Assembly (NCBI RefSeq): GCF_050920415.1
Contig: NZ_CP169309.1
Direction: 5' to 3' (one strand)
Origin: Escherichia coli
GTDB lineage: Bacteria; Pseudomonadota; Gammaproteobacteria; Enterobacterales; Enterobacteriaceae
Length of the DNA: 64,000 nt
The position numbers were made by a program, and so were the translations under genes. Positions 59,702-61,074 of the stretch are shown here, in pieces (positions within the stretch are counted from its first letter, which is position 1; the number at the start of each line of letters is the position of its first letter). The notes below the pieces were generated by a model. It was given only the letters and a program-made list of their open reading frames with translations, did not search any database and was not told where the DNA came from.

Positions 59702-59962
59702 TCAGTTTTTTACTTCAATTTCCAGTTCAGGCGCATAAATATCATTTACTTTGCCAACCAGTTGAAGCGCTGCACCCGGACGTTTTAATACTTCTGCCAG
59801 TGCTTCTTTACTTTCCGTTGCCACAATTCGCGTCAGATAGTTATGTGCCGGGGCGACTTTATTATCCATCGCCATTTCATTGATAAATTTGTTGTAGGCG
59901 GTCTGATTTGGCTCAAAAATAATATCCACACCACAAACACACAGTTTAATTTGTTCCATCAC
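59702..59962 (-). CDS. Putative tail assembly chaperone (gpE/G-like), 86 aa; in-frame TGA followed by a 73-codon open extension
   Basis: Small ORF immediately upstream of the tape measure gene; ends ...GAA GTA AAA AAC TGA C; the same frame stays open from 59701 to a stop at 59480-59482 with no start codon. Confidence 0.45.
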   Translation of the reverse strand: MMEQIKLCVCGVDIIFEPNQTAYNKFINEMAMDNKVAPAHNYLTRIVATESKEALAEVLKRPGAALQLVGKVNDIYAPELEIEVKN

Positions 59963-60245
59963 TCATACTCTCTCTTAAATTAATTTCGTCCACTAACTGA
60001 TTATGACGCGCAGCGCACTGGCCATAAATTTCAGGATAAATTGTCAGTAATTCCGCTGCGTCTTTTCCTGTCGTACCGTTCAGGCGCGGCAGCTGCGTGG
60101 TGCATTTAGTTTTCAGGTTTTCCTGATAACGCACGTTCGGTACCGGCTGCGGCGCTGTTGTACATGCTGACAAACTCATCAGACAGACAACGATTGGTAA
60201 AAACGGGCTTAAGTATTTCCGTGCGTATCTCTCGCGGTGCCACAT
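59946..60245 (-). CDS. Outer-membrane lipoprotein spanin (Rz1-like)
   Basis: 99 aa; signal peptide with lipobox LSAC (MWHRERYARKYLSPFLPIVVCLMSLSAC); starts inside the 3' part of the Rz-like gene in another frame. Confidence 0.6.
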   Translation of the reverse strand: MWHRERYARKYLSPFLPIVVCLMSLSACTTAPQPVPNVRYQENLKTKCTTQLPRLNGTTGKDAAELLTIYPEIYGQCAARHNQLVDEINLRESMSDGTN

Positions 60246-60444
60246 TTTTTAACGCCTCCAGTTTATCTTCCAGCGCTCTGGCCGAATCACTGGCAACACC
60301 CTGCATTGCTTTTCGCGATTCATTACCGGCCACCTGCGCCGCTGTATTGATTGCCAGCTCTAAGCTGTCACGCCGCCAGTCAGCGGTCAGCCAGCCCCAG
60401 ACAAACGCCAGTGCCACCACAACCAGCCACCGCCCGCTGCTCAT
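60106..60444 (-). CDS. Inner-membrane spanin (Rz-like)
   Basis: 112 aa; N-terminal TM (WLVVVALAFVWGWL) then a charged helical region; start overlaps the endolysin stop by 1 nt. Confidence 0.55.
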   Translation of the reverse strand: MSSGRWLVVVALAFVWGWLTADWRRDSLELAINTAAQVAGNESRKAMQGVASDSARALEDKLEALKNVAPREIRTEILKPVFTNRCLSDEFVSMYNSAAAGTERALSGKPEN

Positions 60445-60785
60445 CAGCGCACCCCGTTATGTTCCAGACTGAAATGATTGCCATCCGGTCTGGATTTGAA
60501 GCGTCCGCCCCAGGCACCACCCAGTGATTCCCAGTATTCCCCCAGTGGCAGATAATCTTCTGTGCGGGTTTTGTACTGACCGTTCACGAACAGATTGAAA
60601 TCCACCGCCAGCCGCTGGGTGTGCAGACTGTTAGAAATGCCGCTGCCTTTCTTCGCATTCAGCGCGGCCTGTTCTGGTGTACGGTAAGCCTCACCGAACG
60701 TCAGTCTGTAGCCATGTTCTTCTGCCCAGTGGATCAGACTGGCCACCATGACTGTGAATAATTGCTGTTTTTCACTCAGGGTCAT
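60444..60785 (-). CDS. Endolysin, peptidase M15-type
   Basis: Start MTLSEKQQLF (113 aa) overlapping the holin 3' end; motifs GEAYRTPEQ, SLHTQRLAVDF and C-terminal GNHFSLEH; the longer track ORF from 60902 is rejected. Confidence 0.7.
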   Translation of the reverse strand: MTLSEKQQLFTVMVASLIHWAEEHGYRLTFGEAYRTPEQAALNAKKGSGISNSLHTQRLAVDFNLFVNGQYKTRTEDYLPLGEYWESLGGAWGGRFKSRPDGNHFSLEHNGVR

Positions 60786-61074
60786 TTGTCTTGTTCCCGT
60801 TCTGCTTTCCCGCTGCACGTCTGCGCAGCCACACTTCCACCGCCTGATAACCGGCAATCCCCAGCGCCGCCCCCAGCCCCTGAATGGCCAGCGGGCTGGC
60901 ATCCGGGATCTGAATCAGCACCGCCCCGGCCACCACTGAAACCAGACTGCCCAGGATCACGCGACCGGCAAACAGGCGCGGCGTTATGGGGTCATTACTG
61001 GTCAGCACATTGCCGATGGCAATCAGTGCGCCAATGATCAGCAGCGAATAAAGGCTCTTTTCATGCTCCTGCAT
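60772..61074 (-). CDS. Holin
   Basis: 100 aa with two or three predicted TM segments and a charged C-terminus (RRRAAGKQNGNKTNDPE); immediately upstream of the endolysin. Confidence 0.55.
   Translation of the reverse strand: MQEHEKSLYSLLIIGALIAIGNVLTSNDPITPRLFAGRVILGSLVSVVAGAVLIQIPDASPLAIQGLGAALGIAGYQAVEVWLRRRAAGKQNGNKTNDPE

Follow-up and report, generated by a model that had tools for sequence, protein, structure and literature searches.

A lysis cassette lodged among tail genes can belong either to a normal temperate phage or to a particle-releasing remnant of one, and the locus described here raises the question of which of the two it represents. In the window (i.e., the whole 64,000-nucleotide stretch of Escherichia coli contig NZ_CP169309.1 that was analysed), eight minus-strand genes follow each other in the order sheath, tube, holin, M15 endolysin, Rz, overlapping Rz1, chaperone and tape measure, all of them intact. 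Sequence comparison points to the normal late lysis module of an ESSI-2-like temperate myovirus of the Peduoviridae (HP1-type tail, P2-type head and regulation) that probably resides next to mntR, a reading to which we assign a probability of roughly 93%.

Organization of the cassette

The four lysis genes (holin, M15 endolysin, Rz-like and Rz1/LysC-like) are minus-strand ORFs located where the preliminary description, made from the letters alone, had placed them, and they are bounded by the tube gene (61084-61539) on one side and the chaperone gene (59702-59959) on the other. The tube stop lies 9 nt ahead of the holin ATG, the holin and endolysin genes share 14 nt (60772-60785, ATGACCCTGAGTGA) and the endolysin and Rz genes a single nucleotide (60444, TGATG), both as originally described, Rz and Rz1 overlap by 140 nt (60106-60245), and Rz1 and the chaperone gene by 14 nt (59946-59959). 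The last overlap had been drawn as 59946-59962, an extent that the annotated chaperone ATG does not give; 59962 corresponds to an in-frame GTG one codon upstream of that ATG. From these overlaps, the tight translational coupling proposed originally may be supposed.

All four cassette proteins match lysis families and none matches a structural family in PHROG and Pfam, and these profile matches (holin, M15, Rz-like, LysC) lie far beyond chance; NCBIfam gave no match for the holin, endolysin, Rz, chaperone, tube or sheath. The eight gene identities proposed earlier, from sheath to tape measure, are borne out by PHROG, Pfam and homologues, and the homologues of the small ORFs are lysis proteins, not structural ones. 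A location inside a tail gene block could still suggest that the small ORFs are minor tail structural or assembly proteins, e.g., with the M15 protein serving as a virion-associated cell-wall hydrolase at infection, and some phages do carry tail-associated peptidoglycan hydrolases. We regard this as vanishingly improbable, as four lysis-family matches stand against zero structural ones, the neighbours of the M15 gene encode a membrane holin and a spanin pair, which have no role in a virion, and non-homologous HP1 genes in the same slot cause lysis (PMC7312051). The small ORFs are thus best read as lysis genes.

Holin and endolysin

The first gene of the cassette (60772..61074, minus strand; ATG at 61074, stop at 60772) encodes a predicted holin of 100 aa and of the P2 gpY type. 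It matches Pfam Phage_holin_3_2 (PF04550) with E = 7.2e-39, residues 1-86 being aligned to positions 1-86 of the 86-position model, as well as PHROG 175 (holin, E = 1.4e-39), and is 54% identical to P2 Y (E = 6.5e-30). Hydropathy reveals two clear hydrophobic segments (approximately residues 8-26 and 37-55) and a weaker, Gly/Ala-rich one (ca. 61-82), for which a simple scan leaves a third transmembrane segment uncertain. The C-terminal tail is basic (RRRAAGK; C-terminus RRRAAGKQNGNKTNDPE), and a dual-start motif is not evident in the sequence. Taken together, the hydrophobic segments, the charged C-terminal tail and a gene adjoining that of the endolysin give the profile of a small membrane protein.

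The second gene (60444..60785, minus strand; ATG at 60785, stop at 60444) encodes a 113-aa protein, by all appearances a soluble M15 zinc peptidase, that RefSeq names ‘endolysin’ or ‘M15 family metallopeptidase’ and that matches Pfam Peptidase_M15_4 (E = 1.5e-10) and the PHROG endolysin families 1768 (7.5e-16), 465 and 2649. It is 86% identical to the endolysin of Escherichia phage ESSI2_ev040 and 100% identical to that of E. coli Br_190_kylling. YRTPEQ, S53-L-H55-TQRLAV-D62 (S-x-H-x6-D) and D101-G-N-H104 (D-x-x-H) are seen in its translation, and on the basis of family knowledge, rather than a structural alignment, we take H55-x6-D62 and D101-x-x-H104 to be the M15 zinc and catalytic motifs. 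A sequence search of the PDB returned nothing at E <= 0.01 and, at E <= 10, a weak match to the L-alanyl-D-glutamate peptidase Ply500 (E = 0.42) together with a chance match to an NRPS carrier domain. No 19-residue hydropathy window of the endolysin reaches 1.4, hence neither a signal nor a SAR segment is predicted. A longer endolysin ORF of 152 aa (ATG at 60902) was rejected, its Arg/Trp-rich extension running out of frame over the holin gene and being annotated in no record.

In HP1, which has homologous tail genes, the same position is occupied by a pinholin and a signal-anchor-release (SAR) endolysin (PMC7312051), and a similar pair could be envisaged here in place of a large-hole holin with a cytoplasmic endolysin. 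We consider it extremely unlikely: tblastn of the lysis proteins against HP1 Hol and Lys gave no match below E = 6, the endolysin is devoid of an N-terminal hydrophobic segment and is an M15 peptidase, not a lysozyme, and the holin resembles P2 Y at the identity given above. P2 Y is a canonical holin serving the cytoplasmic endolysin K. A large-hole holin acting with a cytoplasmic endolysin is what these features suggest.

The spanin pair

The third gene (60106..60444, minus strand; ATG at 60444, stop at 60106) encodes a putative Rz-like i-spanin of 112 aa that matches PHROG 1152 ‘Rz-like spanin’ (E = 3.5e-35) and has no Pfam match. According to the hydropathy scan, its N-terminal residues 6-19 (WLVVVALAFVWGWL) are hydrophobic and follow a basic R5, the remainder being hydrophilic. 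The fourth (59946..60245, minus strand; ATG at 60245, stop at 59946) encodes the putative o-spanin, an Rz1/LysC-like lipoprotein of 99 aa, in the +1 frame: it starts 199 nt into the 339-nt Rz gene, runs 160 nt past its end and has a strong SD (GGAGG) 9 nt upstream of its ATG. It matches PHROG 2425 (E = 7e-33), PHROG 456 Rz-like spanin (E = 1e-6) and Pfam LysC (E = 3.3e-6), and falls below the cut-off of the NCBIfam equivalog NF038368 P2_Rz1 (19.3 bits, E = 9.5e-4, vs. 27 bits). Through the Pfam LysC family the protein is related to P2 LysC, and it should not be filed as a P2 LysC equivalog.

The N-terminus of Rz1 is composed of a basic n-region, a hydrophobic core and the lipobox L-S-A-C28 (MWHRERYARKYLSPFLPIVVCLMSLSA followed by C28-T-T), found with a PROSITE PS51257-like pattern and predicting lipidation; the +2 residue is Thr, with no Asp, so the protein is without an inner-membrane retention signal. 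The 99-aa o-spanin with both lipobox and GGAGG is kept in most of the 47 distinct sequences. An anchored i-spanin, an o-spanin with a lipobox and an Rz1 that starts within Rz and ends past it are together the features of overlapped spanins, and the original observation of an Rz1 starting within the 3' part of Rz in another frame is confirmed (140 nt, +1 frame). A heuristic check on membrane and lipoprotein features, by hydropathy scan and lipobox patterns, was also positive: both the holin and Rz contain hydrophobic segments, and Rz1 carries a lipobox. The spanins of ESSI-2 are catalogued as ‘ovl’ (overlapped), with an i-spanin (OIS) of 110 aa and an o-spanin (OOS) of 99 aa (Kongari et al. 2018).

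RefSeq/PGAP start the o-spanin at an internal GTG, which yields 62 aa and loses the lipobox, and the ev040 record does likewise; in ev239 the o-spanin is unannotated, and in ESSI-2 it is ‘hypothetical’ and the holin is unannotated. Automated pipelines systematically give the o-spanin gene of these prophages a wrong start or leave it out.

Flanking tail genes and a putative frameshift

Upstream of the cassette are the tail sheath gene (61536..62663, minus strand; 375 aa, DUF2586/HP1-type; PHROG 907 tail sheath, E = 2.3e-164), whose product is 52% identical to HP1 orf23 and 55% to the phiO18P sheath and finds no match to P2 FI by BLAST, and the tail tube gene (61084..61539, minus strand; 151 aa; PHROG 1182 tail protein, E = 5.7e-75), with 58% identity to HP1 orf24 (tube) and 62% to the phiO18P tube. 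Downstream are the gpE-like tail assembly chaperone (59702..59959, minus strand; 85 aa; PHROG 1214, E = 1.6e-40), named ‘putative tail assembly chaperone’ in RefSeq, and the tape measure (57547..59514, minus strand; 655 aa; PHROG 28, E = 2.3e-98), which scores 55.2 bits against NCBIfam TIGR01760 (cut-off 28.8). Across HP1, K139 and phiO18P the sheath (42-55%), the tube (48-62%) and the tape measure are homologous to those here, and the chaperone has homologs in HP1 (orf26, 44%) and phiO18P (gp36, 63%) and no match in the K139 locus. By these comparisons all four flanking tail genes belong to the HP1 type rather than to that of P2.

The end of the chaperone gene carries a putative programmed -1 frameshift site with a gpE+E'-like extension (59511..59711, minus strand), consisting of the slippery heptamer A_AAA_AAC (59705-59711), an 8-nt spacer and a predicted 9-bp hairpin (arms 59688-59696 and 59666-59674). 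Read in the -1 frame, the chaperone gene continues without a stop up to a TGA overlapping the ATG of the tape measure. The heptamer is present in all related loci (78/78), in 77 of the 78 the -1 frame closes, after 64 codons, with an ATGA at the start of the tape measure, and the hairpin is kept with compensatory changes across 30 sequence variants. As a whole segment the frameshift region folds no better than shuffled sequences (z = -0.94), and only the local 9-bp stem and its covariation are meaningful. The site is unannotated, and automated annotation splits the frameshift product off as a ‘DUF6890’ ORF.

Phage or tailocin

The preliminary description had taken lysis genes among tail genes as a pointer to a tailocin cluster or a defective prophage. 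R-type (pyocin) tailocin clusters indeed carry lysis genes next to contractile-tail genes, and the window stops at 64000 inside the head-tail adaptor gene, with the head, replication and integration half of the prophage beyond it. Thus, the locus might be an R-type tailocin or a defective, domesticated prophage, in which head genes have been lost and the lysis genes release headless tails. Against this, the same gene order occurs in the plaque-formers ESSI-2, ESSI2_ev and HP1, and all eight genes are intact. Over 3201 bases the locus is 96.5% identical at the nucleotide level to ESSI2_ev040 (Peduoviridae). Identities of 95.8-96.5% were obtained with six records from three ESSI2_ev phages, of ca. 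81% with another four records (ev239 and Salmonella phage S.Kent 1-2-1) and of 98.5% with E. coli prophages. The window also remains collinear with ev040 to its last base (96.3% over 13.6 kb), reaching the neck genes and the 3' end of the head-tail adaptor gene, which likewise argues against a tailocin. Infectious, plaque-forming coliphages of the ESSI2_ev group have been obtained from viromes (PMC6969025).

Moreover, the closest complete E. coli genome harbors a full prophage of ~32 kb between mntR and mntS, with integrase, CI, replication, Ogr, portal, terminase, capsid and tail genes, and with the same insertion site and cargo genes as here, which makes a tailocin unlikely. R-type tailocins are without capsid, packaging and replication genes, whereas all of these are present in relatives of this element, which form plaques. 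We therefore judge a tailocin or domesticated remnant to be very unlikely; the proposed pointer in that direction is contradicted by near-identical phages that form plaques (PMC6969025) and by the full prophage of the closest complete genome, and the locus is best regarded as part of an ESSI-2-like temperate phage. No tRNA gene turned up in a tRNA scan of the window, which therefore offers no attachment site of that kind. Finding lysis genes within a tail block is not, on its own, grounds for calling an element a tailocin or a defective prophage. Beyond correct annotation the case matters little, the window carrying a standard, apparently intact ESSI-2-like prophage of the P2 family.

Transcription and proposed course of lysis

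The four lysis genes would be expressed from a long late morphogenetic transcript, together with the head-completion, sheath, tube, chaperone and tape-measure genes. One late transcript is suggested by gaps and overlaps of at most 14 nt and by a scan of 57-64 kb in which neither border of the cassette showed a promoter- or terminator-like site on the minus strand; the same scan gave 3 promoter-like sites, fewer than the 5.7 of shuffled controls, and 9 terminator-like sites, about as many as in shuffled controls (7.9). For this phage group as a whole, we infer co-transcription, lysis activity, holin topology and Rz1 lipidation from sequence features. Judging by its family and sequence, the P2-Y-type holin would build up in the inner membrane and open holes with a timing that its own sequence determines. 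The soluble M15 zinc peptidase, devoid of an export signal, could then leave through these holes and cut peptidoglycan cross-links, after which the two spanins, Rz-like in the inner membrane and an Rz1/LysC-like lipoprotein in the outer one, would link up across the periplasm, fuse both membranes and finish lysis. Being located just after the highly expressed sheath and tube genes, the holin gene could tie holin dosage, and hence lysis timing, to the output of tail proteins.

Comparison with known lysis systems

The S-R-Rz-Rz1 cassette of lambda follows the same three steps as proposed here, with a holin, an endolysin and then a two-component spanin whose o-spanin, a lipoprotein of the outer membrane, is read in the +1 frame from the i-spanin gene. 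The whole of lambda Rz1 is contained in Rz, whereas Rz1 here overlaps Rz and then continues beyond it by the 160 nt given above; lambda R is a transglycosylase, in contrast to the M15 peptidase here, and the lambda cassette is located in the late operon upstream of the head genes.

P2 had been cited together with lambda as having its lysis cassette outside the tail genes, which is refuted by the P2 record: Y-K-lysA-lysB-lysC is found inside the O late morphogenetic operon, with the essential tail genes X upstream and R and S downstream. The likeness to P2 comprises a homologous holin (gpY, 54%), an o-spanin in the LysC Pfam family and a lysB/lysC overlap of 146 nt, as compared to 140 nt here. 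The P2 cassette, however, has X and R/S as its neighbours and is located upstream of the V and F tail operons, which are separate, whereas the one described here is bounded by tube and chaperone; endolysin K of P2 does not belong to the M15 peptidases and has no similarity to the endolysin here, a lysA-like gene is absent here, and the sheath and tube are unrelated to those of P2 at the BLAST level.

The resemblance in position is to HP1, sequenced in 1996 and with a cassette characterised in 2020. Lysis genes come directly after the tube in HP1 (hol, lys, orf25), K139 (endolysin) and phiO18P (hol/lys/Rz), as they do here. In HP1, hol and lys were placed after sheath and tube on the late transcript, and experiments show that they cause lysis (PMC7312051). 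The HP1 cassette has a 78-aa pinholin and a SAR muramidase (PMC7312051), which are non-homologous to the P2-Y-like 100-aa holin and the soluble M15 peptidase here; in phiO18P the slot additionally holds a DksA-like zinc-finger gene and a DNA methyltransferase gene. The spanins of HP1, K139 and phiO18P are also catalogued as ‘ovl’ (Kongari et al. 2018). On the basis of these differing contents, i.e., a P2-Y-type holin with M15 here, a pinholin with a SAR lysozyme in HP1 and the extra genes of phiO18P, we tentatively propose, with considerable doubt, that the tube-chaperone junction of HP1-type tail operons is a fixed ‘lysis slot’ where unrelated modules and extra genes are swapped by recombination. 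Two holin allele types, 50-57% identical, occur among phages with 87-90% identical tube genes.

ev040, ev239, ESSI-2, HP1, K139 and phiO18P share a layout of sheath, tube, lysis genes, chaperone (with -1 frameshift) and tape measure, all in one direction. The order of the eight genes is also the same in every IMG/VR relative with enough DNA (best 80 of 432 tube relatives inspected). The placement among tail genes, first described as unusual, therefore recurs at the same position in HP1, K139, phiO18P, ESSI-2 and the ESSI2_ev phages. This tube-chaperone position is the long-known standard layout of the ESSI-2/HP1 lineage and is already known, and sequence comparison shows it to be the ancestral, conserved lysis position in phages with an HP1-type tail module. 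The closest likeness is found in the ESSI-2 group itself: in the RefSeq record of ev040 the holin, endolysin and Rz-like spanin are annotated between ‘tail protein’ (the tube) and ‘putative tail assembly chaperone’, and ESSI2_ev040, ev129 and ev015 (Quadragintavirus), ev239 and Cronobacter phage ESSI-2 (Seongnamvirus) all have the same genes in the same order and tube-chaperone position. Nucleotide identity to this locus ranges from 96.5% (ev040) to 76% (ESSI-2), and the ESSI-2 and ESSI2_ev phages share with it the same 140-nt Rz/Rz1 overlap and differ from it only by small sequence differences.

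Gene layout and predicted functions

The lysis cassette (59946-61074, minus strand) is embedded in an unbroken series of eight minus-strand genes separated by tiny gaps or overlaps, as established from an ORF listing and from reading the sequence: sheath (61536-62663), tube (61084-61539), holin (60772-61074), endolysin (60444-60785), Rz-like i-spanin (60106-60444), Rz1-like o-spanin (59946-60245), tail chaperone (59702-59959) and tape measure (57547-59514). All the overlaps named in the preliminary description are present, i.e., 14 nt between holin and endolysin (ATGACCCTGAGTGA), 1 nt between endolysin and Rz (TGATG) and 14 nt between Rz1 and chaperone. 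The claim that Rz1 starts inside Rz in another frame also holds: of the 339 nt of Rz, 199 precede the Rz1 start, which is in the +1 frame, and the two genes share 140 nt before Rz1 continues 160 nt past the Rz end.

Gene identities previously proposed from sequence alone are borne out by Pfam and PHROG matches. The holin is matched over its full length by Phage_holin_3_2 (E = 7e-39) and by PHROG 175 (“holin”), and is 54% identical to P2 gpY. In a hydropathy scan it has two strong hydrophobic segments and a third that is weaker and rich in Gly/Ala, and its C-terminal tail is basic. The endolysin matches Peptidase_M15_4 (E = 1.5e-10) and three PHROG endolysin families, and its translation carries the M15 signature motifs (YRTPEQ; S-x-H55-x6-D62; D101-x-x-H104). 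As the same scan revealed no hydrophobic segment at its N-terminus, this enzyme should be cytoplasmic and holin-dependent. Rz corresponds to PHROG 1152 (“Rz-like spanin”, E = 3.5e-35) and has a predicted N-terminal membrane anchor (hydropathy scan), with no match in Pfam, while Rz1 matches Pfam LysC (E = 3.3e-6) as well as PHROG 2425 and PHROG 456, and has a predicted lipoprotein signal of textbook form (MWHRERYARKYLSPFLPIVVCLMSLSA/C28-TT). Thus, by heuristic prediction, transmembrane and lipoprotein features are not lacking among the small ORFs, and their matches are to lysis families, so the refuting condition named in the preliminary description does not refute the lysis reading.

Given that no promoter- or terminator-like sites were found at the cassette borders and that relatives carry an Ogr/Delta gene, we infer that the lysis genes would be co-transcribed with the tail genes on an Ogr-dependent late transcript, probably with translational coupling through the gene overlaps. 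Lysis would then follow the canonical path, in which the holin makes a hole, the M15 peptidase is released and the spanins drive fusion of both membranes.

Annotation of the o-spanin

The o-spanin is poorly annotated or mis-annotated in public records. Both the ESSI2_ev040 record and the PGAP E. coli annotation begin it at an internal GTG (60134), giving 62 aa and dropping the signal peptide and lipobox, the ESSI2_ev239 record omits the gene, and the ESSI-2 record labels the 99-aa ORF “hypothetical”. The positions concerned in loci L001, L002 and L004 are 9608-9796, 12447-12635 and 1947-2246, respectively. Based on the Shine-Dalgarno GGAGG located 9 nt ahead of the Rz1 ATG, the lipobox (LSAC), conservation, and PHROG and Pfam matches that cover the protein starting at residues 14-23, we consider the predicted 99-aa product with both elements to be the conserved form. 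One sub-lineage (e.g., relatives' loci L070-L082) has no ATG ahead of the lipobox; translation there probably starts at a GTG.

A predicted frameshift in the tail chaperone

A slippery heptamer (A_AAA_AAC, 59705-59711, minus) is found at the end of the chaperone gene, just ahead of its stop codon. This stop codon forms the first part of an 8-nt spacer, beyond which comes a 9-bp hairpin with arms at 59688-59696 and 59666-59674. The -1 frame is open for 64 codons, and its terminal TGA overlaps the tape-measure ATG. All 78 related loci have the heptamer, 77 of the 78 an open -1 frame ending at the tape-measure ATG, and the hairpin stem shows compensatory changes among relatives. We therefore predict that the tail chaperone gene undergoes programmed -1 frameshifting (59511-59711, minus), the counterpart of P2 E/E+E'. 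It is absent from the annotation of these records, and PGAP calls part of the frame “DUF6890 family protein”.

Origin and surroundings of the prophage

Two phages of the Peduoviridae match the 3.2-kb region, Escherichia phage ESSI2_ev040 at 96.5% identity and Cronobacter phage ESSI-2 at 76%, and the region occurs at 98.5% identity in prophages of 49 of the 5426 complete E. coli genomes. The position of the lysis genes among tail genes had been taken as tailocin- or defective-prophage-like. Such a tailocin or remnant is unlikely: the window is collinear with ev040 from 50357 to its last base (96.3%), reaching into the head-tail adaptor gene, the ESSI2_ev phages are infectious coliphages isolated from infant gut viromes (PMC6969025), and E. 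coli AHB29, the closest of the complete genomes, with the insertion beside mntR and the cargo genes as here, has between mntR and mntS (locus L089) a full prophage of roughly 32 kb that runs from integrase to tail fibres, the integrase being on the mntS side. The head half of the window's own copy lies beyond the window. The prophage adjoins mntR (46577-47044) and ybiR (45462-46580); no tRNA gene was found in the window, hence the attachment site is not a tRNA.

Low-GC (38-42%) cargo (47410-49808, plus) separates mntR from the last tail genes. One of its genes codes for a 524-aa AAA/OLD-like ATPase (PADLOC HEC-04, 3e-33; ATPase-Toprim_I-B, 1e-20) and is a candidate for anti-phage defence; the other product, of 232 aa, resembles serine/sugar O-acetyltransferases. 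Of 5426 complete E. coli genomes, a single one had this pair (95.5% identity). Another E. coli genome has a reverse-transcriptase-domain gene in place of the ATPase beside the acetyltransferase, so that the prophage end may be a variable defence hotspot. Three genes located downstream of the one for tail-fibre assembly (567, 181 and 253 aa; 50353-53334, minus) had no NCBIfam or PADLOC match, and their public labels vary (“baseplate protein”, “baseplate complex protein”, “hypothetical”). The host part contains the small RNAs RybB (12068-12146, plus; 104.8 bits) and naRNA4/CssrE (35755-35832, minus; 73.7 bits), both at the Rfam gathering threshold, and a second low-GC stretch (24001-28000, 43.6% vs about 50-55% around).

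Mosaicism and comparison with known phages

Compared with HP1 and phiO18P, the sheath is 52-55% identical, the tube 58-62%, the chaperone 44-63% and the tape measure 33-34%, and there was no BLAST match to P2 FI or FII. By sequence, the tail genes are of HP1 type and the holin is of P2-Y type, and the endolysin is unlike both P2 K and HP1 Lys. Close relatives have two holin allele types, 50-57% or 84-99% identical to that of the window, the former in many phages (among relatives' loci L013, L016, L023-L084) despite flanking tube and endolysin identities of 87-92% and 93-96%. This mosaicism is ordinary phage modular exchange in a fixed slot. In phiO18P (L086, 6579-8227) the slot past the tube also holds a DksA-like zinc-finger gene, along with a DNA methyltransferase gene between holin and endolysin, and in K139 a C4 zinc-finger gene; the slot therefore takes non-lysis cargo.

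An IMG/VR scan with the tube protein recovered 432 relatives, and among the best 80 of these 432 loci the order sheath-tube-holin-endolysin-Rz-Rz1-chaperone-tape measure had no exception where the DNA was long enough. The sheath protein family is shared with HP1, HP2, K139, phiO18P, F108 and Pseudomonas phi3, and the lysis genes of HP1 (hol, lys, orf25), K139 (orf27-30) and phiO18P (hol, met, lys, Rz-like) are, as here, directly past sheath and tube and ahead of the tape measure. The HP1 lysis paper gives the same position, and hol and lys experimentally cause lysis (PMC7312051). The arrangement is thus neither unusual nor tailocin-like, as had been suggested, but already known and annotated: in the ev040 RefSeq record, genes named holin, endolysin and Rz-like spanin stand between “tail protein” (tube) and “putative tail assembly chaperone”, and the spanins of ESSI-2 (i-spanin 110 aa, o-spanin 99 aa), HP1, K139 and phiO18P were catalogued as “overlapped” by Kongari et al. 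2018. The contrast drawn earlier with P2, whose cassette was said to lie outside the tail genes, fails as well, as the P2 record places Y-K-lysA-lysB-lysC inside the O late operon, flanked on one side by X, an essential tail gene, and on the other by R and S, which serve tail completion, with a lysB/lysC overlap (146 nt) similar to that of Rz/Rz1 in the window.
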